Source: Planctomycetota bacterium
Lineage (GTDB): Bacteria; Planctomycetota; UBA1135; GCA-002748355
Assembly: GCA_002685965.1 (NCBI GenBank)
Contig: NYZE01000005.1
Location: forward strand, 1,712 to 65,711
DNA: 64,000 bases
Reading direction: 5' to 3'
Position 1 is the stretch's first letter. Each line of letters opens with the position of its first letter. The translations under genes and the position numbers were made by a program. The notes below the pieces were generated by a model, which was given only the letters and a program-made list of their open reading frames with translations, made no database searches and was not told the origin of the DNA. Below are positions 2,584 to 61,462 of the stretch, piece after piece.

Positions 2584-3456
2584 TCATGGCAGCAACTCGG
2601 TCATGTCGTGGTAGGTCTCGGGTCTCCGATCGCGATAGAACTGCCAGACTCGGCGCACCTCCTCGATCACGTCCAGGTCGAGGTCTGCCGTGATGAGCTC
2701 ACTTTCGTCCTCGCTGCCCTCCGCGAGGAACTTGCCGCGCGGATCGACGAAATAGCTCGAGCCGTAGAACTTGCCGAGGTTCCACGGCTCCTCTGTGCCG
2801 ACGCGGTTGATGCAGCCCATGTAGTAGCCGTTGGCGACGGCGTGCGCGGGTTGCTCGAGCTTCCACAGGTACTGCGACAGCCCGGCGACGGTCGCCGACG
2901 GGTTGAACACGACCTCGGCGCCGTTGAGGCCGAGCAGGCGCGCACCTTCCGGGAAGTGGCGGTCGTAGCAGATGTAGACGCCGACCTTGGCGTAGCGCGT
3001 CTCGAACACCGGATAGCCGAGGTTGCCCGGCTTGAAGAAGTACTTCTCCCAGAACCCCGAGGTGTGCGGGATGTGGATCTTGCGGTACTTACCCAGGTAG
3101 CTGCCGTCCGCGTCGATGACGGCGGCGGTGTTGTAGTAGACACCGGCTTGTTCGCGCTCGTAGACCGGCACGACCATGACCATCTCGTGCTTGCGCGCGT
3201 ACGGTTGCAGCGCTTCGAGCGTTGGGCCGGGGACTGGTTCGGCTGCGTCGTACCAGCGTTTGTCCTGTCCCGGGCAGAAGTAGGGACCGTTGAAGATCTC
3301 TTGCAGACACAGTATCTGCACGCCGGCTGCGCCGGCCTCTTCGATCAGCGGCAGGTGCGCTTCGAGCGCCGCTGCCTGGATGTCGGCAACCGGGCACGTC
3401 TCGTCATTGATCGGGTTCGCGCACTGGATCAGGCCGCCTTTGACGGTTCGTGTCAC
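2584..3456 (-). CDS. Beta-ureidopropionase / N-carbamoyl-beta-amino acid amidohydrolase (CN-hydrolase superfamily)
   Basis: 290 aa. Glu-Lys-Cys triad contexts LCLQEIF, YRKIHIP, VYICYDRHFPE. 10-bp gap to the dihydropyrimidinase gene. Confidence 0.85.
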   Translation of the reverse strand: MTRTVKGGLIQCANPINDETCPVADIQAAALEAHLPLIEEAGAAGVQILCLQEIFNGPYFCPGQDKRWYDAAEPVPGPTLEALQPYARKHEMVMVVPVYEREQAGVYYNTAAVIDADGSYLGKYRKIHIPHTSGFWEKYFFKPGNLGYPVFETRYAKVGVYICYDRHFPEGARLLGLNGAEVVFNPSATVAGLSQYLWKLEQPAHAVANGYYMGCINRVGTEEPWNLGKFYGSSYFVDPRGKFLAEGSEDESELITADLDLDVIEEVRRVWQFYRDRRPETYHDMTELLP

Positions 3457-3469
3457 GTTGCTAGTTCTC

Positions 3470-4909
3470 CTACCAGCGAGAGATGACGACCTTGCGGTCG
3501 GTATAGAAGTCGAACGCCTCGCGCCCGTGCGCTTTCAGGTCGCCGAAGAACGACCCCTTGGCGCCACCGAAGCCGAAGAACGACATCGGTGCTGCGACCC
3601 CGATATTGACGCCGGCCATGCTCGCGTCGATCTCGTAGCGGAACTTGCGCGCCGCGCCGCCGCTTTGTGTGAAGATCGAGCTCGCGTTGGCGAGCGGATG
3701 TTGCTTGGCCATGCTGATGGCCTCGTCGAGGTCGGTCGCTGGCATCAGGCAGAGCACCGGGCCGAAGATCTCGTCGTGGCCGACCTTCATGTCGGCGTTG
3801 ACGTTGTCGAACAGCGTCGGGCCGACGAAGTAGCCTTCGTCCGGGCCGTGACCGCGGCCGTCGACAACCAGTTCGGCGCCTTCCTGGACGCCTTGCTCGA
3901 TGTAGCCGAGCACGCGTTCCTTGGCGCCCTGTGAGATCACGGGGCCCATCGACGTGCCAGTGTCGGCGCCGTTGCCGACCTTCATCTGGCTGATGCGCTC
4001 GATCAGTCCGTTGCGGACCTCGTCGTGACAGGCGCCGACCGGGACCACGATGCTCGCGGCCAGGCAGCGCTCGCCAGCGCAGCCGTAGGCCGACTCGGTG
4101 ATCGCATCCAGCGCCGTGTCCATGTCCGCGTCGGGCATGATGAGCATGAAGTTCTTCGCGCCGCCGAGTGCCTGCACGCGCTTGCCCTTCGCGGCCGCGG
4201 TCTTGTAGACGTGCTCGGCGACCGGGCTCGAGCCCACGAACGAGATCCCCTTGATTAGCGGGTGCTCGCACAGCGCGTTGACGGTGTCCACGCCGCCTTG
4301 CACGAGGTTGAGCACGCCGGGCGGAAAGCCCGCTTCGTGCACGAGTTCCCAGACGAGCTTCTGGGTGAACGGCACCTGCTCGGATGGCTTGGAGATGAAG
4401 GTGTTGCCGCAGGCGGCCGCGAACGGGAAGAACCACATCGGCACCATGGCCGGGAAGTTGAACGGTGAGATGCAGGCGAAGACGCCCATCGGCTGGCGCA
4501 CCGACTCGCAGTCGATGCCGGTCGCGATGTCCTCGAGTGCTTGGCCCATGAGCAGTGAGGGTGCACCGCATGCCACTTCGACCATCTGGATGCCGCGGCG
4601 CACGCTGCCGAGTGCTTCCGACAGCGTCTTGCCGTTCTCGCGCGTGACGATCGTGGCGAGCTCCTCGGCGTTGTCCTCGAGCAGGCTCTTGAGCTTGAAG
4701 AGGTGCTGCACGCGGTTTTCCGCCGGCGTCTTACGCCAGGCCGAAAACGCTTCGTGCGCTGCAGTTGCGGCCAGGTCGACCTCGCTGGCGCCCCCGAGCG
4801 GAGTCAGTCCGATGACTTCGCCAGTAGCAGGGTTGCGTACCTCGTGGTGCGCATCGACGTCGACGTTTTGCCATTCGCCGTTGATGTAGTTCTGTAGGCG
4901 TTCGGGCAT
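3470..4909 (-). CDS. mmsA: Methylmalonate-semialdehyde / malonate-semialdehyde dehydrogenase (CoA-acylating)
   Basis: Track ORF 3470-4987. The family-typical N-terminus MPERLQNYINGEW begins at ATG 4909. Motifs FNFPAMVPMW, VGSSPVAEHV and catalytic Cys in GERCLAAS. Confidence 0.85.
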   Translation of the reverse strand: MPERLQNYINGEWQNVDVDAHHEVRNPATGEVIGLTPLGGASEVDLAATAAHEAFSAWRKTPAENRVQHLFKLKSLLEDNAEELATIVTRENGKTLSEALGSVRRGIQMVEVACGAPSLLMGQALEDIATGIDCESVRQPMGVFACISPFNFPAMVPMWFFPFAAACGNTFISKPSEQVPFTQKLVWELVHEAGFPPGVLNLVQGGVDTVNALCEHPLIKGISFVGSSPVAEHVYKTAAAKGKRVQALGGAKNFMLIMPDADMDTALDAITESAYGCAGERCLAASIVVPVGACHDEVRNGLIERISQMKVGNGADTGTSMGPVISQGAKERVLGYIEQGVQEGAELVVDGRGHGPDEGYFVGPTLFDNVNADMKVGHDEIFGPVLCLMPATDLDEAISMAKQHPLANASSIFTQSGGAARKFRYEIDASMAGVNIGVAAPMSFFGFGGAKGSFFGDLKAHGREAFDFYTDRKVVISRW

Positions 4910-13619: not shown

Positions 13620-14498
13620 ATGCCTCTGATCGAAGCCCTTCGGCCCCATCAGTGGGTCAAGAACCTGCTCGTGTTTGCGCCGCTGGTGTTCGCGCGCAAG
13701 CTCATCGACCCCGCGGCATGCTTGCACGCGGCCAGCGCTTTCGTTGCTTTCTGTGCCGTTGCGAGCGGGATCTACCTGCTCAATGACCTGAGCGATATCG
13801 ACGCTGACAAGCTTCACCCCGAGAAGAAGTTGCGGCCGTTGCCGTCCGGTCGCCTGTCCGCCGGAACGGCGAAGGTCACTTTGGTGCTGCTTTGGATCGG
13901 TGGGCTGGCGCTCGCGTTCCTCGGCGCGAACTGGTTCCACTGGCCGCTCGGCGTCTACCTCGTCATCAACATCTTCTATTCGTTGAAGCTCAAACAAGTC
14001 GTGCTGCTCGACACGATGTGCATCGCGCTCGGGTTCTTGCTGAGGATCTACTCTGGCGCGGTCGCCATCGGTGAAGAAGCCTCACCATGGTTGGTGTTGT
14101 GCACGTTCTTCGTCGCGCTCCTGCTCGCGTTCGGCAAGCGCCGTCACGAACTCCATCTGCTCGGCGAAGGCTCACTCGAGCACCGCAAGTCACTCGCCGA
14201 ATACTCGTTGCCCTACCTGGATCAGCTCATCGCTCCGCTCGGCGCGCTGACCGTGATGACTTACGCGATGTACACGGTGTCCGAACGCACGGTCACCGAG
14301 GTCACCGACAAGCTGATCTTCACGGTGCCGTTCGTCGTCTACGGGATCTTCCGCTACCTCTACCTCGTGCACATGCGCGCCGAGGGCGGGAATCCGACCA
14401 GGCTGCTGCTCAAGGATCCGCCCATGTTCATCAACATCGTGCTCTGGTTAGGGGTCAGTGTGTGGGCGGTCTATACCGGCGCGGCTGTCCCGCAATGA
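13620..14498 (+). CDS. UbiA-superfamily prenyl-phosphate phosphoribosyltransferase (decaprenyl-phosphate 5-phosphoribosyltransferase, Rv3806c-like)
   Basis: 292 aa. ALRPHQWVKNLLVFAPL, Asp-rich YLLNDLSDIDADKLHPEKKLRPLPSG (NDxxDxxxD), GKRRHEL, HRKSLAEYS and FRYLYL align by eye with mycobacterial DPPR synthase, not with MenA/UbiA/MqnP N-termini. Confidence 0.8.
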   Translation: MPLIEALRPHQWVKNLLVFAPLVFARKLIDPAACLHAASAFVAFCAVASGIYLLNDLSDIDADKLHPEKKLRPLPSGRLSAGTAKVTLVLLWIGGLALAFLGANWFHWPLGVYLVINIFYSLKLKQVVLLDTMCIALGFLLRIYSGAVAIGEEASPWLVLCTFFVALLLAFGKRRHELHLLGEGSLEHRKSLAEYSLPYLDQLIAPLGALTVMTYAMYTVSERTVTEVTDKLIFTVPFVVYGIFRYLYLVHMRAEGGNPTRLLLKDPPMFINIVLWLGVSVWAVYTGAAVPQ

Positions 14499-14508
14499 CG
14501 CGACCCTG

Positions 14509-15834
14509 ATGAAGTCGCATGCGCCCTTGCTCGCCACGGGCGCCGTGCTCGCTGCCGTGGCGGGGGGCCTGCGCCTGGCCCAGGCCTGGCGAGTGCCAGT
14601 GCCGTCGACCGACGGGGCCTCGTATCTATGGATCGCGGAAGCGCTTGCGCGTGGTGACTTCGTGGCGGGGCTGGACCACGTGTTCCACCCGGGTGCGCCG
14701 CTCGCCTGGGCGCCGCTGATCGCCGTCGGCGTCGACGCGCATCTGGCTGCGAAGCTGGTCGGTGTAGTCTGCGGCGCCGTCGCGGCGGTGTTCGTCTGGC
14801 TGGCAGCGCGCGGGATAAGCGATGACCGCAAGGGACTGTGGGCGGCGCTGCTCTTCGCGGGCTGCTTCCTCGCCGTGCGCCTACCGGCGGATGCATACAG
14901 CGAAGCGGTCTACCTCGTGCCCGCGGCCGCGGCGGTGTGTTTCGCCGTGCGCGGCCGGGTGACAGCTATCGGCTTGGCGGCGGGCATCGCCTTCTGGGTG
15001 CGGCCCGAAGCCCTGTGCCTGGTGCCGCTAGTGTTCGTGCGCGGCGTGCGCCGCGGAACCCTGGGTGTTTTCGTCCTCGTTGCGGTCGCCGCGGTCTATC
15101 CGCTTGCCCGATGGCTGTTCGTCGGCGAGTTGGACCTGACGCCGAAGGCCGATTTCATGGCGTCGATGGGGCCATTGGCGGCGCCAGACGTTGCGGGCGT
15201 ATTGCTGGGTCTCGGGCACAACCTGTTACGAGTTCCGCTCGAAGCGATCCCGGCGCTCGACTGGGTCGTGTTCCCGCTTGGCCTCGCCGGCCTCCTGGTG
15301 GGTCAACGGCGTCAGACGCCGTTGACCCACCAGGCGCGGATGCCGCGGCTCGTGCTGGCCGCCCTCGTGCTTGGCTGGTTGGCGATGATCCCGTTCCAGG
15401 TGAAGCCACGCTTCTTCCTGAGTCAGGCGCCGCTGCTCTTGCCGTTCGCGCCGCTGGCCTTCCGGCATGCGCGGTGGCTCCTGTTCGCGGGTCTCGCTTT
15501 GAGCCTGTGGCGCACCGGGAGCGACATCGTGCGGCCGCCACGCACGGAGAAGCGGGCCGAGCGAGTTACCGGCGAGCAGCTTGCTGAGCGCGGTATCGAG
15601 CAGGGACAACTCGCTACGGACCTGCCGCGGATCGCTTACTACGCGGGCTTGCGGCCACCGCTTCCGGTCGTGTGGACCCCTCTGATGCTCACGGACAGGC
15701 TCGACGATCCCGCAGTTCGGTGGGTCGTCTTCGGCGCTCTCCACGAAGGCAGGCGTGCGTTACTCGGGAGCCGCCGCGACTTTCGTTTGCTCGCCCAACC
15801 CGACCGCCGCCTGTTGCTCGCCGAGCGGCGCTGA
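14509..15834 (+). CDS. GT-C-fold integral membrane glycosyltransferase (PMT_2/ArnT-like)
   Basis: Track ORF 14458-15834. ATG at 14509 avoids overlap with the upstream gene. MKSHAPLLATGAVLAAV..., STDGASYLWIAEALARGDF in the first loop, more than 10 predicted TM segments. Confidence 0.6.
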   Translation: MKSHAPLLATGAVLAAVAGGLRLAQAWRVPVPSTDGASYLWIAEALARGDFVAGLDHVFHPGAPLAWAPLIAVGVDAHLAAKLVGVVCGAVAAVFVWLAARGISDDRKGLWAALLFAGCFLAVRLPADAYSEAVYLVPAAAAVCFAVRGRVTAIGLAAGIAFWVRPEALCLVPLVFVRGVRRGTLGVFVLVAVAAVYPLARWLFVGELDLTPKADFMASMGPLAAPDVAGVLLGLGHNLLRVPLEAIPALDWVVFPLGLAGLLVGQRRQTPLTHQARMPRLVLAALVLGWLAMIPFQVKPRFFLSQAPLLLPFAPLAFRHARWLLFAGLALSLWRTGSDIVRPPRTEKRAERVTGEQLAERGIEQGQLATDLPRIAYYAGLRPPLPVVWTPLMLTDRLDDPAVRWVVFGALHEGRRALLGSRRDFRLLAQPDRRLLLAERR

Positions 15835-30171: not shown

Positions 30172-30200
30172 CCAACAAACGAGCCTGGCTCGTTTGTTGG
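30172..30200. terminator. Perfect hairpin between convergent csp and GDSL genes (12-bp stem after opening a 5-nt loop); no U-tract
   Basis: ccaacaaacgagcc t ggctcgtttgttgg read directly, 96 nt after the csp stop. Candidate bidirectional terminator or RNA-stability element. Confidence 0.4.
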
Positions 30201-30218: not shown

Positions 30219-30252
30219 TACCGGGTCAGATTGTGTACCGGGTCAGATTGCG
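30219..30252. repeat. Short intergenic tandem duplication, 17-bp unit taccgggtcagattg(t/c)g x2
   Basis: Read directly; 16/17 identity between copies. Lies between the convergent csp and GDSL genes. Confidence 0.9.
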
Positions 30253-40441: not shown

Positions 40442-42160
40442 TCACGAACGAAGTTTCGATAACAGCGCCTGACCCTCGCGATGGTCAGGCGCTCTTTCGA
40501 GGAGCTTCCGCAAGGCCGCGCGTGCCTTCGGCTTGTCGGAGGCACGTAACCAGTGCTGGGCAAGCTCGAACCACGCATCGTCTTGGCCACCGGCTGCGGC
40601 AGTCTCGAGGTGGCGCACAGCTGCCGTGGTGTCTCCGAGCCGGGAGCAAATCCCGCCCATGAGCAGCGACGCGTTCGGGTGCTTCGGAATGGCTGCCAGC
40701 AACTTGGCGAGCTCGGCGCGCGCCTCGACGAAGCGGCCTCGTGCGGCAGACCCATCGCCGCGCTCTGCGGCGGCTTGACCGGCCCGGACAAGCGCTCTGG
40801 CTGCGTTGAGCCGCACCTCGGGCTTGTCCGGTGCCAGGTCGGCGGCGACTCGGTAGGCTTCCGCGGCATCGGTGAGTTGCCCGAGCCTCGTGTGCGCTTG
40901 AGCAAGTCCGCAGCGCAGGAAGCCATCGTTGGGGTGGAGCCGCGTGACCTGTTGCCAGTAAGTCACGTCGTCGTGCCACACGTAGCACTGGGCAAACGCC
41001 AGTGCCCCCAAGGCGATCGTCGACGCAAGGGATGCGGTCAGCCACATGCTGGCGCGACGTCCAGACAGTAGCCGCGCGAGGCCGGCCGCTGCGAGCGCCG
41101 TCAGCGGGATTAGCGACAGGTATGCGTAGCGGTCTGCGGTGATCTGTCTGCCACTCTGCAAGAGGCCCAACACTGGCGATACGATGACGACGTAGCTCGC
41201 CCACGCTGCCCAGACCCCACTGTGCTTGCGTCGCAGCAAGAACGTCATCAACGTCACCGCGATGACTCCCGCTGCGCAGGCCAGGTACAGGGGGTCGGCC
41301 CACGACAGGCTGTGGTCGCCCAGCTGGTACAGCGGTGAAAGGTCGAGGGGGAACAGCGTCTTCCACGGGTAGAACACGAGAGCGAAGCTCGCCTGCGCGA
41401 GTCGCGCCGGTAGCGGATGTTGCTCGATCGTCATCGCCGCCTGCTCACTCTGCGCAAAGGCCGCGAGAATGGCGGTGACGGCCGACAAGGCGAGGAAGGG
41501 CAGTAGCTCCGCGGCGCGACGTTGCCAGCTTGCGCGGTGCCGTAGGACGTAGACGTCGACCAGCACGAGCACGACCGGCAGCGTGATGCCCCAAGCCTTG
41601 GCGGCGAGGGAGGCCGTGTAGCTGATCAGGGCCAACTTGTAGAAGCGACTCGGACTGTCCGTCCCGGACCGCGAGCGAACCCAGAACAACAGAGTTAGTA
41701 GCCAGAAGACGCCCGACAAGACGTCGCGTCGCTCGGTGACCCAGGCGACCGACTCGACCCGTAGCGGATGGACCGCGAACCAGAGCGCGCCGACGGCGGC
41801 CGCTGTCATCGCAGGTGGCGACTTGCCCAATAACGCAAGAAGGAGGCGAAAGCAGAGCGTGGCTGCGACGGCATGCAGCACGACGTTCGTCAGGTGATAG
41901 CCGAATGGCGTCAGGCCCCAGACCGCGTGGTCGACGGCGAAGCTCAGCCAGGTCAGCGGGTGGAAGTGGCCGCCCCGAGGATCGAACCACGCTGCGAGGT
42001 TGGCCAACGACAACCCGTGCACGTGCTGATTGCCGGTGACGTTGAGCTCATCGTCGACCGACACGATGAAGTCTGCCGACAGCGCTGGAGCGAAGGCCAG
42101 GAACGCGGCAGCGGCGACGGCGGCCGATAGCCAGAGTTCTAGCCGTGGCTGCCGGTTCAC
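40442..42160 (-). CDS. TMTC-like GT-C O-glycosyltransferase with C-terminal TPR repeats
   Basis: Track ORF extends to 42997, but its first 279 codons are antisense to the amidase gene. In-frame GTG at 42160 forms a GTGA overlap with the amidase stop (42159-42157). N-terminus VNRQPRLELWLSAAVAAAAFLAF, loop motif FIVSVDDELNVTGNQHV (DD motif), about 11 TM, then TPR-like C-terminus. Confidence 0.7.
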   Translation of the reverse strand: MNRQPRLELWLSAAVAAAAFLAFAPALSADFIVSVDDELNVTGNQHVHGLSLANLAAWFDPRGGHFHPLTWLSFAVDHAVWGLTPFGYHLTNVVLHAVAATLCFRLLLALLGKSPPAMTAAAVGALWFAVHPLRVESVAWVTERRDVLSGVFWLLTLLFWVRSRSGTDSPSRFYKLALISYTASLAAKAWGITLPVVLVLVDVYVLRHRASWQRRAAELLPFLALSAVTAILAAFAQSEQAAMTIEQHPLPARLAQASFALVFYPWKTLFPLDLSPLYQLGDHSLSWADPLYLACAAGVIAVTLMTFLLRRKHSGVWAAWASYVVIVSPVLGLLQSGRQITADRYAYLSLIPLTALAAAGLARLLSGRRASMWLTASLASTIALGALAFAQCYVWHDDVTYWQQVTRLHPNDGFLRCGLAQAHTRLGQLTDAAEAYRVAADLAPDKPEVRLNAARALVRAGQAAAERGDGSAARGRFVEARAELAKLLAAIPKHPNASLLMGGICSRLGDTTAAVRHLETAAAGGQDDAWFELAQHWLRASDKPKARAALRKLLERAPDHREGQALLSKLRS

Positions 42161-43800
42161 AGGTCCGGGTGACGGTGGTGGTGCTTCGTCTGTGCTTGCC
42201 AGGTTGCTGCGATTGCTAGCAGGCGCGCGTCGTCGTCGAGTTGCCCGGTCAAGCAGATCGAACGCGGCGGGCCGTTCGGTCGGAAGCCGGACGGCGCGAT
42301 GAATGTCGGATGTCCAGTGAGGTTGGTGAGCGCGAGGATGCCGCCGGCGAACGGTGGATGGACCAGCACGTCGATGTTGCGCATCACCTTGTCGAAGTCG
42401 CGCATCAGCCGTGTACGCAGGCGGTTGGCCTGGATGTACTCGACGGCAGGGATCAGGCGTGCGGCGCGGAAGACGTTCGGCCACGCTTGTGCGACCTGGC
42501 GCACGAGTTCGTCGTCGCGATTGGACCGCGTGAACTCGTCGAACGCTGCCGCTGCTTCGGCATTGAGCACGAACATCATGTCCCCGGTCGGATAGCTTGG
42601 CAGTTCGACCTCGACCAGTTCGCAGCCGAGCGCGCTCAGGTTGTCGAGCACCTTCTGACCCGGCTCGTTGTTGCGGAACGCGCTCTCCCAGTAGCCAACG
42701 CGCAACCCCTTCATGTTGGCGGTCTTGGCCATCGCGAACGGTTTGGTGCGTGCGCTCGGGTCCTTGCCGTCGGCGCCGTGAATTGCCGCCATGACGAATG
42801 CGCAGTCGGTGGCTGAGCGGCAGATCGGGCCCAGCTTGTCGAGGGACCACGAGAGTGTCATCGCGCCGTGTCGGCTGATGCGACCGAAAGTCGGGCGCAG
42901 TCCCGTCGTGCCGCACCGGGATGACGGCGACACGATCGACCCGTAGGTCTCCGAGCCGATCGCGAATGGCACGCCACCGGCGGCCGTCGCTGAGCACGGC
43001 CCGGCCGAAGAACCCGACGAACCCTGTTGCGGGTTCCAGGGGTTGCGCGTCTTACCTCCGAACCACACATCACCCCAGGCGAGCGCACCGAGCGTGAGCT
43101 TGGCGATCAGCACCGCGCCCGCTTGCTCCAGCCTCTGTACGACGGTCGCGTCGTAGTCGAGCATTTGATTCTCGAACGGCTTCGCGCCCCAGGTCGTGCG
43201 CGTGCCGCGCGCCGCGAGGAGATCCTTGGCGCCGTAAGGAATCCCGTGCAGCGGACCGCGATACTTACCGGCGGCGATCTCTTGGTCGAGTTGGCGCGCG
43301 GTCTTGAGCGCGCGCTTCTCGGTCAGCGTGATGACGCAATGCAGAGACTTGTCGAGGCGAGTGAGCCGTTTCAAGAACATCTGCGTCAGCTCGACGCAGC
43401 TGACTCGCTTGGACTTGATCAGACTAGCGAGAGTCTCGATGTCCGCGAACGCGAGCGCTTTGAGATCGTCCGGTCGCTCGCGAGTCGGCAGCGCGAGCTC
43501 GCGCGCCGGTAACGCCACCGATCGATCCACGATCCCCGGCAGAAAGGGATTGAAGGCTAGCGCCGGGTAGAGCTCGTTCGGCAGGACCTCACGGCGCAGC
43601 CGTTTGAACGAGCGCAAGTTGGCGCCGACCTTGCGCATCATCAGCTCGAGCTCCGCATCAGTGAACTGGAGACCGATCAACCGAGCCGCGGCGTCCGCTT
43701 GCGTCTTGCGCTCACCTTGAGCTTCAAGCCGTCCATTCACGGTGAGCGCCACGCCAAGGAGAAGGGGAACCGACGTTGCTTGTAGCCACACATGCCCCAT
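42157..43800 (-). CDS. Amidase-signature (AS) family amidase, probably exported
   Basis: Track ORF to 43863. ATG at 43800 gives a signal-like MGHVWLQATSVPLLLGVALTV. AS motifs GSSGSSAG and GSETYGSIVSPSS. The alternative start at 43863 would place a perfect 12-bp inverted repeat inside coding sequence. Confidence 0.75.
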   Translation of the reverse strand: MGHVWLQATSVPLLLGVALTVNGRLEAQGERKTQADAAARLIGLQFTDAELELMMRKVGANLRSFKRLRREVLPNELYPALAFNPFLPGIVDRSVALPARELALPTRERPDDLKALAFADIETLASLIKSKRVSCVELTQMFLKRLTRLDKSLHCVITLTEKRALKTARQLDQEIAAGKYRGPLHGIPYGAKDLLAARGTRTTWGAKPFENQMLDYDATVVQRLEQAGAVLIAKLTLGALAWGDVWFGGKTRNPWNPQQGSSGSSAGPCSATAAGGVPFAIGSETYGSIVSPSSRCGTTGLRPTFGRISRHGAMTLSWSLDKLGPICRSATDCAFVMAAIHGADGKDPSARTKPFAMAKTANMKGLRVGYWESAFRNNEPGQKVLDNLSALGCELVEVELPSYPTGDMMFVLNAEAAAAFDEFTRSNRDDELVRQVAQAWPNVFRAARLIPAVEYIQANRLRTRLMRDFDKVMRNIDVLVHPPFAGGILALTNLTGHPTFIAPSGFRPNGPPRSICLTGQLDDDARLLAIAATWQAQTKHHHRHPDL

Positions 43801-43837
43801 GTGAGCACTTTGGCCCTCATGCCCGAAGTGCTCACAT
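43799..43837. promoter_or_regulatory. Perfect inverted repeat ATGTGAGCACTT-N15-AAGTGCTCACAT overlapping the amidase start codon
   Basis: Arms 43799-43810 and 43826-43837 are exact reverse complements. The A and T of the ATG at 43800 lie in one arm. Either an operator or an mRNA hairpin that occludes the start. Confidence 0.55.
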
Positions 43838-43880
43838 GAGCAAAAGTTCCTGTGCCGGTCCATTCTCGCTCTGGCTAACC

Positions 43881-43897
43881 TACTACAAAGTGTAGTA
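43881..43897. promoter_or_regulatory. Perfect palindrome TACTACA-AAG-TGTAGTA (TACA/TGTA core), candidate BlaI/MecI/CopY-family operator
   Basis: AT-rich 17-mer in a GC-rich spacer, 25 bp upstream of the BlaI-family gene's ATG and between the divergent genes. The TACA...TGTA dyad is the known core of this repressor family's operators. Confidence 0.6.
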
Positions 43898-43922
43898 GTA
43901 CCGCCCCCGGGAGACTTCGCGC

Positions 43923-44366
43923 ATGAGTCCGCTCTGCCGATCGATCAGCGACACCGAACTCGCAGTCCTCAAGGCGCTCTGGGAGGTCGGCGAGGCGACT
44001 GTGCGTGACCTGCAAGAGCACTTGAGCGTCGCAGGTTTCAACTGGGCCTACACGACCGTGCAGACGCTGCTCAATCGTCTGGAGCAAAAGGAATGCGTCG
44101 CCAGCACCAAGCACGGTCGCGCGTTCCGCTTCTGCGTCACGACTACCCGTGACGACCTGCTCCACCGCGAACTCGGCGACTTGGCCGAGCGTGTCTGCGG
44201 CGGCGCGGCGCTGCCGCTTGTCATGAGCCTCGTGGAGCACACGCGTTTCTCCAAGGTGGAGATCAAGCGTCTCCGTGACCTGCTCGATGACCTCGAGCAA
44301 CCATCGAAGAAGAAAAGCAAGCGCAAGCCGCGGACTCACTCATTGGCGAGGCGAAGCGCGAGATAG
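43923..44366 (+). CDS. BlaI/MecI/CopY-family winged-helix transcriptional repressor (no adjacent BlaR1/M56 sensor)
   Basis: 147 aa. ISDTELAVLKALWEVGEATVRDLQEHL...WAYTTVQTLLNRLEQKECV...GRAFRF is family-typical. GGGAGA SD 9 nt upstream. Confidence 0.85.
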   Translation: MSPLCRSISDTELAVLKALWEVGEATVRDLQEHLSVAGFNWAYTTVQTLLNRLEQKECVASTKHGRAFRFCVTTTRDDLLHRELGDLAERVCGGAALPLVMSLVEHTRFSKVEIKRLRDLLDDLEQPSKKKSKRKPRTHSLARRSAR

Positions 44367-60601: not shown

Positions 60602-61462
60602 CTACCGGCGGCCGCGTCGACGGTCGCCGATGCGCGTTGCCTTCTCGTCGCGAACCGGCAGCTTGGCGCGGTCCAGTAGCTTCTTCTCGGCCTTGAGCAG
60701 CTTCTTTTCCAGCGCGACGAGGGCGGCGGTGTCCTTGTCGAGCTTGGCCTTCTTTGCGACCGGAATCGTCCCTTTCTTGGCCAAGCGCGCCATCTTGTTC
60801 TGCAGTGTCCTCTGCTTGCCTTCGTACAGCATGTAGTCGTTGAGGAAGTTGCGGTACTGCTTCACGAACTTGGGCAGCTGCACCTTGCCCTTGGCGAAGG
60901 TCTTGGCGGCGCGTGTGACCAGTGCGACCAACACCCTCGGCTTGCCCTTGTAACCCTTCATCGAGGCATTGCCCGCGACCTTGCCCTTCTCGTTGAACGC
61001 TACGAACATCGGCGACTTCTTGCCGAACATGCCGCGAGCCATTTCGTCTTGTGAAAGGTCGACTCGGCCACACTTGTAGTAGCGGAGCGCGATGGCGATG
61101 TTCGATGGCGCGCGGAACATGAGGCTCTCAAAGTTCTCGTGCTTGCGCTTGTCGGTGCGCGGGTCGAACAGGTAGAGCAGCGACAGATGCCCATCCTTGC
61201 TGGCGCTCTTGACGAGCGTCGTTTCGGCCAGGCCGTTCATGCCTTTGAAGAGCATCTGTTCTGACAGCGTGACGTCGACGAAGTAGGTCCCCATCCGGCC
61301 CAGGATGGCCTCAGATGGGCCGAAGCCGCGGCCACCGCCTGGACCGCCCTGCGCGCCCTGCCCGCCGGCCCCGCCGCGCTGGGCCGGCAGGGCGATGCAC
61401 GAGAGCAGAGCTACCAGAGCCCAAGACAACGGGGAGCGGGGGAGGTTCGTCATCGGTGACAC
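60602..61462 (-). CDS. Hypothetical secreted protein; Gly-rich linker, unrecognised globular domain, Lys-rich C-terminal helix
   Basis: 286 aa. Signal LSWALVALLSCIALPAQ, then GGAGGQGAQGGPGGGRGFG. C-terminus KKAKLDKDTAALVALEKKLLKAEKKLLDRAK. High GC3 in frame. Confidence 0.55.
   Translation of the reverse strand: MSPMTNLPRSPLSWALVALLSCIALPAQRGGAGGQGAQGGPGGGRGFGPSEAILGRMGTYFVDVTLSEQMLFKGMNGLAETTLVKSASKDGHLSLLYLFDPRTDKRKHENFESLMFRAPSNIAIALRYYKCGRVDLSQDEMARGMFGKKSPMFVAFNEKGKVAGNASMKGYKGKPRVLVALVTRAAKTFAKGKVQLPKFVKQYRNFLNDYMLYEGKQRTLQNKMARLAKKGTIPVAKKAKLDKDTAALVALEKKLLKAEKKLLDRAKLPVRDEKATRIGDRRRGRR

Follow-up and report, generated by a model that had tools for sequence, protein, structure and literature searches.

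A predicted BlaI-family operator and a lineage-specific inverted repeat between divergent blaI and amidase genes of a Planctomycetota bacterium

Described BlaI-type systems and the locus in the window

The repressors BlaI and MecI of the bla and mec divergons of Staphylococcus aureus and Bacillus licheniformis are winged-helix proteins of the Penicillinase_R family with a dyad operator that has a TACA/TGTA core (CTACA in the mecA half-site) and lies in a divergent promoter region including the repressor's own promoter. The core operator of BlaI, MecI and CopY was reported as TACANNTGTA (PMC1935004; PMC7253601) and the bla system has two operators (PMC7253601), as planctomycete relatives often do. 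The same arrangement was found in a stretch of 64,000 nucleotides from a Planctomycetota bacterium (contig NYZE01000005.1, positions 1,712 to 65,711; the whole stretch is called the window here), in which a gene for a BlaI-family repressor (blaI) and a gene for an amidase-signature enzyme diverge from a spacer of 122 bp (43801-43922, start codon to start codon). Two inverted repeats of this region were analysed. Palindrome 1, a 19-bp dyad upstream of blaI, is very probably the operator of the adjacent BlaI and is explained and ordinary for planctomycete BlaI-type repressors. Palindrome 2, which covers the amidase start, is real, lineage-specific and unexplained, and any function of it is presumptive. 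Taken as a whole, the locus is on balance best explained by a BlaI-controlled divergent promoter region together with a leader hairpin formed by palindrome 2.

The blaI product (147 aa) matched Pfam PF03965 (Penicillinase_R) with E = 1.5e-29 over residues 8-122, covering 114 of the 115 profile positions. Its closest solved structures were CopR (2k4b), Mycobacterium tuberculosis BlaI (2g9w) and MecI/BlaI (1sd6/1okr, 1sd4). The best NCBIfam match was CopY/TcrY with 74.5 bits, which is under the TIGR02698 cut-off of 121.95, and the protein scored far under the NCBIfam cut-offs for BlaI and MecI. Judged by these matches, it is a family member at Pfam/fold level and not an equivalog of BlaI, MecI or CopY. 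The cop box of CopY/CopR (KACANNTGTM within RNYKACANNYGTMRNY) shows the same half-site degeneracy (K-ACA / TGT-M) as the planctomycete operator, but its spacer is 2 nt compared to 3 nt in the window. Unlike CopY, the window protein has no C-terminal CxCxxxxCxC metal site and only one conserved Cys (C92), and Pfam searches and gene calls showed no copper ATPase or chaperone gene near blaI. The BlaI of M. tuberculosis (Rv1846c), which is paired with the BlaR homologue Rv1845c, is likewise a BlaI homologue of a GC-rich non-Firmicute and aligned with the window protein over residues 7-125 at low identity. M. tuberculosis BlaI regulates genes besides beta-lactamase (PMC12565901).

Compared to the BlaI/MecI divergons, the TACA-TGTA spacer is 3 nt in the window and in the planctomycete clade but 2 nt in TACANNTGTA, and the flanks of the operator are CTMC/GKAG. 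The divergent gene encodes an amidase-signature enzyme instead of a beta-lactamase or PBP2a. In addition, no BlaR1/MecR1 gene is adjacent in the window, and the sensors of the relatives carry TPR repeats instead of a penicillin-binding domain.

The blaI operator and its promoter

A first-pass annotation of the window, made from the letters alone, had read the 17-mer TACTACA-AAG-TGTAGTA (43881-43897), 25 nt before the blaI ATG (43923), as a BlaI/MecI/CopY-type operator with a TACA/TGTA core. The position was correct and the 17-mer was found to be the core of a 19-bp dyad separated from the ATG by 24 nt, with the TACA-AAG-TGTA core at 43884-43894. The reading as an operator was borne out by the comparison of related loci described below. 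An 8-bp dyad is not rare by itself, since Markov resampling gave a probability of ~0.025 for one in 140 nt. The significance of palindrome 1 comes from its sequence-specific match to the family operator and from the comparison with other loci. A search for further copies showed that palindrome 1 was the sole site within 3 mismatches across the 64 kb, and it was also the top match of the family position weight matrix (PWM) in the window with 31.8 bits against 13.0 for the runner-up. This second site (TTCGTACAGCATGTAGTCG at 60821, 13 bits) lies inside overlapping long ORFs, none of which was identified as a gene, and was set aside as a probable chance match.

Related loci were collected by scanning species-representative genomes for the recognition-helix peptide WAYTT[VL]QTL, which produced 80 loci, most of them from genomes with a Planctomycetota label, several from Hydrogenedentota and a few from records under other labels. 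The recognition-helix motif of the window BlaI (WAYTTVQTLLNRL) was kept across the clade. Of the 80 loci, 28 had a perfect TACA-N3-TGTA core in the 300 nt before the blaI start, the extended flanks always being the same. After removal of near-duplicates, 57 independent Planctomycetota-type loci had at least one site of at least 17 bits with the symmetrised PWM, and these gave a clade consensus of a 19-bp dyad, CTMC-KACA-N3-TGTM-GKAG, just upstream of the blaI homologues. Sites of at least 14 bits numbered 97 in 20.6 kb of upstream sequence compared to 2 in the remaining 498 kb of locus sequence, and these two were located at -289 and -293, barely outside the upstream window used. In a control independent of the PWM, KACA-N3-TGTM occurred 82 times upstream and 6 times elsewhere, while spacers of 0, 1, 2, 4, 5, 6 and 7 nt produced 0-2 upstream sites each (N2 = 2). 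The operator spacer in the clade is strictly 3 nt. Two operator sites were present in 24 of the 57 loci with a start-to-start spacing of 15-31 bp, mostly 21-28 bp. No description of a planctomycete BlaI operator was found in the searchable literature; the N3 operator extends known biology in an expected way.

The nearest distinct BlaI proteins were 57-68% identical to that of the window, and identity in the protein database jumped from 99% to 68%. The nearest relative, L007 (BlaI 68% identical), carries CTACTACA-ACG-TGTAGTAG upstream of blaI, in L008 (64%) CTCCTACA-N3-TGTAGGAG is present twice in tandem, and L009 (64%, Phycisphaerales) has a degenerate copy, GTCCTACAAACTGTCGGAG. A Gemmataceae locus (L063) showed a 19-mer identical to palindrome 1.

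The promoter elements of the relatives were arranged around this dyad. TTGAC was located just upstream of the promoter-distal operator in 30 of the 57 loci (gap of 1-2 nt in 29 and 4 nt in one), and a TAnnnT hexamer (TAGGAT, TAGAAT and similar) started at operator position 17 in 26. Both elements were present together in 25 loci, with a 17-18-nt spacer occupied by the operator. Since the operator sits between -35 and -10 in these relatives, binding should occlude RNA polymerase, as is classical for BlaI, MecI and CopY. The promoter region of the window has a single operator site of the distal type, and its putative promoter positions are as in Table 1. We infer that a dimer of the adjacent BlaI binds the 19-bp dyad CTACTACA-AAG-TGTAGTAG. 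Located between the -35 and -10 boxes as in the relatives, it would occlude RNA polymerase and blaI would be autorepressed, and through the shared region the divergent operon of a secreted amidase and a TPR protein would probably be co-repressed.

A compact layout was also observed in which TTGACA is followed after 1-2 nt by the distal operator, its right end serving as the -10 box (TAGGAT/TAGAAT), and then by a second operator mostly 21-28 bp downstream. It was seen in L008, L019, L029, L030, L038, L042, L046, L052, L055, L056, L058, L060, L063, L064, L066, L067, L070, L079, L084, L088 and L091, at blaI-upstream coordinates of about 3400-3500 in most. Among the 24 two-site loci, 9 have a proximal operator that stops 4-11 nt short of the predicted start codon, with its terminal GGAG where a Shine-Dalgarno element would be expected. 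In this layout one repressor could prevent the initiation of transcription and also obstruct the leader on the DNA template.

The amidase ORF matched Pfam PF01425 (Amidase) with E = 3.5e-73 and scored under every NCBIfam equivalog cut-off. The protein was ~59-63% identical to aligned homologues, with all catalytic blocks present. Its ORF is opened both by the ATG at 43800 (547 aa) and by an upstream in-frame ATG at 43863 (568 aa). The ATG at 43800 is favoured because all public gene calls use it and because the N-termini of 14 homologues start directly at the hydrophobic signal-peptide-like segment that follows it. With this start the 122-bp divergent spacer given by the first-pass annotation was reproduced, and the two Pfam matches confirmed its naming of a BlaI-family repressor divergent from an amidase.

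Amidase genes were also divergent from blaI in L009, with 62% identity to the window amidase, and in L007, with 45% identity over residues 37-404, where it was called as two separate genes on a contig of low coverage. Alignment tests of the spacers showed no other significant element besides the operator. That three lineages share the divergent amidase-blaI arrangement and, within the spacer, conserve only the operator supports co-regulation, and BlaI probably controls the amidase as well, given the shared position of the operator and the conserved synteny. A metagenome search with the amidase returned one locus, L011 (56%), where the amidase follows a same-strand 271-aa ORF and not blaI, and was uninformative. 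In some close homologues (58-63% identity) the amidase is joined to a PF00144 beta-lactamase-family (serine hydrolase) domain and in one to PF19780 (fusion proteins P0126, P0194 and P0123), which hints that the amidase family may act on cell-wall-like or beta-lactam-like substrates and would fit control by BlaI.

The description of the repressor as an orphan held locally. A tblastn search with three M56 domains showed no M56 (BlaR1-type) gene in the 64 kb, compared to an M56 gene directly downstream of blaI in 60 of the 74 relatives with enough downstream sequence. The sensors of L007, L008 and L009 combine an M56 domain with TPR repeats in one protein. Downstream of the window blaI lies a convergent gene whose product is an M28 peptidase with a PA domain, and the two 3' ends overlap by 31 nt (44336-44366). 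It occupies the position of BlaR1 in the relatives, which would fit the loss of the sensor by rearrangement. The TPR protein encoded downstream of the amidase was considered as a detached BlaR1 sensor domain and rejected, as it showed no significant similarity to the BlaR1-like proteins of L007 and L009.

The window BlaI showed no signs of decay and every clade-invariant residue was kept. BlaR1/MecR1 cleaves MecI at N101-F102. The MecI segment 'lvlNFve' aligned with 'lvmSLve' of the window protein, where the position aligned with the cleavage site is S-L, as it is in the sensor-bearing L008. L103 does not vary within the clade and is preceded by S, N, T or A, also in proteins with a BlaR1 partner. 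In most relatives, a BlaR1-like M56 protease with a TPR sensor would relieve the repression. With the M56 gene absent from the 64 kb, release in the window would therefore depend on a sensor encoded elsewhere or on a small-molecule ligand. A peptidoglycan dipeptide was reported as the effector that releases B. licheniformis BlaI (PMC3305447).

The inverted repeat at the amidase start

Palindrome 2 had been described with 12-bp arms at 43799-43837 (ATGTGAGCACTT-N15-AAGTGCTCACAT), one arm holding the A and T of the amidase start codon. The location was right but the perfect arms are 13 bp long (CATGTGAGCACTT and AAGTGCTCACATG, 43798-43838), and the left arm spans the entire CAT at 43798-43800, which is the amidase ATG on the minus strand, and thus covers all three bases. 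With one mismatch allowed, the repeat has 16-nt arms and a 9-nt loop. As minus-strand RNA, the amidase AUG is located at the 3' foot of the stem as the last three paired bases. The stability claimed for the RNA was confirmed in silico, as the 47-nt hairpin folded at -30.6 kcal/mol (z = -7.7; none of 200 shuffles as good) and ranked 8th when both strands of the 64 kb were scanned as 42,636 sliding 47-nt windows. When the 140-nt region was resampled 20,000 times with a first-order Markov model, perfect 13-bp arms around a loop of 3-25 nt never arose, and the probability of a perfect arm of at least 12 bp was ~5e-5. Only six distinct perfect hairpins with arms of at least 10 bp were present in the window, palindrome 2 included. 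Palindrome 2 is non-random. The earlier statement that the two exact dyads are unlikely to be chance therefore holds for palindrome 2 by its symmetry, and for palindrome 1 by its match to the family operator but not by the length of the dyad.

The surrounding sequence showed further repeats. The loop and right arm of palindrome 2 (43816-43829, CTCATGCCCGAAGT) are complementary at 13 of 14 positions to the blaI start region (43914-43927, ACTTCGCGCATGAG), by which the amidase leader holds a near copy of the blaI translation-initiation sequence, AUG 43820 included, with borderline significance. A partial direct repeat was also found (43791-43808 / 43818-43835). Both may reflect local duplication or a common binding element. 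Two small ORFs begin at ATGs made by the terminal and loop CATG motifs of palindrome 2 and show no evidence of translation: a 19-codon ORF (MSKSSCAGPFSLWLTYYKV, 43836-43895, plus strand) that ends within the BlaI operator and a 27-codon ORF (43737-43820, minus strand) that starts at the hairpin-loop AUG 43820 and overlaps the amidase start out of frame.

Palindrome 2 and the rest of the spacer were identical in eight same-species contigs from different samples. Allowing 2 mismatches, further copies in the 64 kb did not exceed chance, and none was found in 85 fetched loci outside the species. A repeated or mobile element was rejected, as four viral-contig matches to a relaxed pattern were unrelated hairpins in about the number expected by chance. 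No terminator-like site was found in 43600-44100 and no T run follows the stem on either strand. Hairpins other than operator pairs were not meaningfully enriched upstream of the blaI homologues. An inversion of the spacer relative to L007 (GTGCTCACGGGCATG on the blaI side of L007, GTGCTCACATGGGGCATG on the amidase side of the window) was not significant; the best p of local alignments of the flanks in either orientation was about 0.06.

Among the readings of palindrome 2, the leader hairpin was ranked first as a tentative preference, followed by a neutral duplication as a lesser possibility, an operator for a second factor as improbable and the coding sequence of a longer amidase as most doubtful. 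For the leader hairpin, the minus strand from 43877 to 43800 has no TA dinucleotide, and the TAnnnT candidates on the amidase strand (TACACT and TAGGTT, in the operator and at its edge) as well as a GAGAAT hexamer (43867-43862, minus strand) all lie upstream of palindrome 2. From a conventional promoter the transcript would therefore carry the whole hairpin in its 5' leader. In this leader, a hairpin of about -30 kcal/mol would bury the AUG at 43800, and since the AUG is paired at the end of the stem with no Shine-Dalgarno element before it, initiation would be strongly inhibited. The hairpin would thus hold basal amidase translation low, or else stabilise the mRNA. Palindrome 2 may act in this way, although we hold this with less than even confidence. 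Its stem includes the initiation codon, as do the start-codon-sequestering hairpins of RNA thermometers and the MS2 replicase. Such regulatory hairpins need marginal stability, whereas palindrome 2 with its 13 perfect pairs is far too stable for physiological melting. It also differs from them in having no known partner protein or small RNA, no conservation and no Rfam match (none in Rfam 15 with E ≤ 1 in 43500-44200 on either strand).

Several points count against the combined explanation of BlaI control with a leader hairpin. The PWM was built from the same loci that it scores, a circularity which the elsewhere and spacer controls reduce but do not remove. A consensus scan found no sigma-70-type promoter in the window, where the -35- and -10-like hexamers are degenerate. 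A stem of -30 kcal/mol over an AUG without a Shine-Dalgarno element would nearly abolish translation, and no mechanism of opening was identified. No counterpart of palindrome 2 is present in the orthologous amidase-blaI loci L007 and L009; the amidase start of L009 has no inverted repeat and its leader folds worse than shuffles (z = +1.55). Covariation could not be read, as the eight same-species contigs are invariant and the jump in BlaI identity from 99% to 68% leaves no informative intermediates. Finally, a weak leaderless-type promoter, TGAGCA-N17-CAAAGT-N6-ATG, can be read within palindrome 2. Its use would give an mRNA without the 5' arm of the hairpin, with the repeat then acting, if at all, as DNA across the core promoter. 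No relevant literature on leaderless transcription in planctomycetes was found.

A recent neutral or slightly deleterious inverted duplication around the amidase start, fixed in one clonal marine population, is a possible but less probable reading than the leader hairpin. It agrees with the confinement of palindrome 2 to one species-level population, 100% identical in the 8 contigs, and with its absence from the nearest relatives. The partial direct repeat (CATGCCCCATGTGAGCAC / CATGCCCGAAGTGCTCAC) together with the 14-nt inverted copy of the blaI start region suggests local duplication and rearrangement, and the locus appears rearranged because the BlaR1 gene of the relatives was lost. However, a 13-bp stem that sequesters the start of an intact, highly conserved amidase would be costly if it purely blocked translation, and the arms stayed perfect, whereas symmetry in the intervening 15 nt is limited to a 3-bp extension.

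The first-pass annotation had proposed palindrome 2 as a second operator of different specificity. A DNA operator for a second transcription factor over the core promoter or start of the amidase, which would place the gene under two repressors, is unlikely. The 13-bp perfect symmetry and the placement between the BlaI operator and the amidase start would suit such a site, each arm is nearly palindromic itself (GTGAGCAC / GTGCTCAC), and the leaderless-type reading would make the arms overlap the -35 box and the -10/+1 region. Nevertheless, no regulon was visible, as no other copy occurred in the window or at the other loci. Palindrome 2 was also not conserved in the orthologous amidase-blaI loci. 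With a centre-to-centre distance of 27 bp between its 13-bp arms, the repeat does not have the usual geometry of a dimeric regulator site, and blaI is the only regulator gene in the immediate neighbourhood by Pfam and gene calls. The arms resemble half-sites of CIRCE, the HrcA operator (TTAGCACTC-N9-GAGTGCTAA), which acts as DNA and as mRNA hairpin; they hold GAGCACTT / AAGTGCTC with 7 of 9 positions matching per arm (TGAGCACTT vs TTAGCACTC). The nonamers are 15 nt apart instead of the 9 required, the window has no CIRCE match within 3 mismatches and the amidase is not a chaperone gene. The CRP-like pentamers TGTGA / TCACA in the arms are 27 nt apart compared to 6 for CRP, and a CRP site was rejected. 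The layered control that two dyads had been taken to imply stands as a hypothesis only, with palindrome 2 neither conserved nor accompanied by a visible regulon.

It is very doubtful that the BlaR1-less BlaI still represses the secreted amidase operon in two tiers, by a ligand-relieved occlusion of the operator and a translational gate at the hairpin. In the first tier a small ligand would act instead of proteolysis, for which the dipeptide of B. licheniformis BlaI (PMC3305447) and the beta-lactamase-family amidase fusions may be compared. In the second, the hairpin would hide the amidase AUG and display AUG 43820 of the 27-codon out-of-frame upstream ORF in its loop, and the gate would be opened by translation of this ORF or by a trans-acting factor. 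An amidase start at ATG 43863 is similarly improbable: it would lie outside the hairpin, turn palindrome 2 into codons 9-22 and leave a spacer of only 59 bp centred on the BlaI operator, but the 21-residue extension (MDRHRNFCSCEHFGHEGQSAH) has no counterpart in the 14 homologues, no public gene call uses it, and GAGAAT, the best -10-like candidate for the amidase besides the operator edge, overlaps that ATG.

Gene context, other hairpins and significance

The features of the locus are listed in Table 1. The term amidase operon used by the first-pass annotation was reasonable, as the 4-bp overlap of the amidase stop with the start of the TPR-protein gene indicates that the two genes probably form one operon. 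The window sequence was 100% identical in marine metagenome contigs, Tara Oceans samples among them.

Table 1. Coordinates of genes, repeats and putative promoter elements at the blaI-amidase locus of the window.
Feature	Coordinates	Strand	Description
TPR-protein gene	40442..42160	-	572 aa, C-terminal TPR repeats; start overlaps amidase stop by 4 bp
Amidase-signature gene	42157..43800	-	547 aa from ATG 43800; signal-peptide-like N-terminus; divergent from blaI
Palindrome 2, inverted repeat	43798..43838	-	Arms 43798-43810 / 43826-43838, 13 bp perfect, 15 nt between
TGGCTA, putative -35 position	43872..43877	+	2 nt upstream of operator; 3/6 matches to TTGACA, degenerate
TAGGTT, mirror -10 hexamer	43882 down to 43877	-	Better -10 match than TAGTAC
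Palindrome 1, predicted 19-bp BlaI-family operator	43880..43898	.	CTACTACA-AAG-TGTAGTAG; 8-bp perfect arms, 3-nt spacer
TAGTAC, putative -10 position	43896..43901	+	Starts at operator position 17; without the final T of TAnnnT; presumed position only
GGGAGA, Shine-Dalgarno-like	43909..43914	+	GGAG core 43910-43913 ends 9 nt before blaI ATG
blaI-like gene	43923..44366	+	BlaI/MecI/CopY-family winged-helix repressor; without adjacent BlaR1 gene

Other hairpins were also recorded. The strongest in the window was a 41-bp perfect palindrome at 15294-15334 (CCTGGTGGGTCAACGGCGTC-A-GACGCCGTTGACCCACCAGG, 20-bp arms, -40.8 kcal/mol), apparently inside a long ORF without Pfam hit (14458-15834, plus strand) beside a GT87 glycosyltransferase gene. 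A perfect palindrome with 14-bp arms (CCAACAAACGAGCC-T-GGCTCGTTTGTTGG, 30172-30200) was intergenic, downstream of a GDSL-lipase gene, and was followed by a tandem repeat of two copies of TACCGGGTCAGATTG (30219-30252); neither had terminator features. In L055, a contig labelled Nitrospiraceae, a 76-nt perfect hairpin (3316-3391; 32-bp arms, 12-nt loop) was located 185 nt upstream of the blaI homologue and was unrelated to the operator.

Palindrome 2 stands as a curiosity of one marine population and, if functional, would represent translational gating layered on BlaI control. The orphan state of the repressor prompts one to ask how repression could be lifted without a cognate protease. The locus nominates a secreted amidase-signature enzyme as a target of BlaI. 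Overall, the BlaI/MecI logic of a repressor acting on its own promoter extends to the very numerous BlaI-BlaR1-like modules of Planctomycetota and neighbouring phyla, which lack functional characterisation, and the operator model CTMC-KACA-N3-TGTM-GKAG between the -35 and -10 boxes is usable for regulon prediction where the signals and targets of the sensors are unknown.

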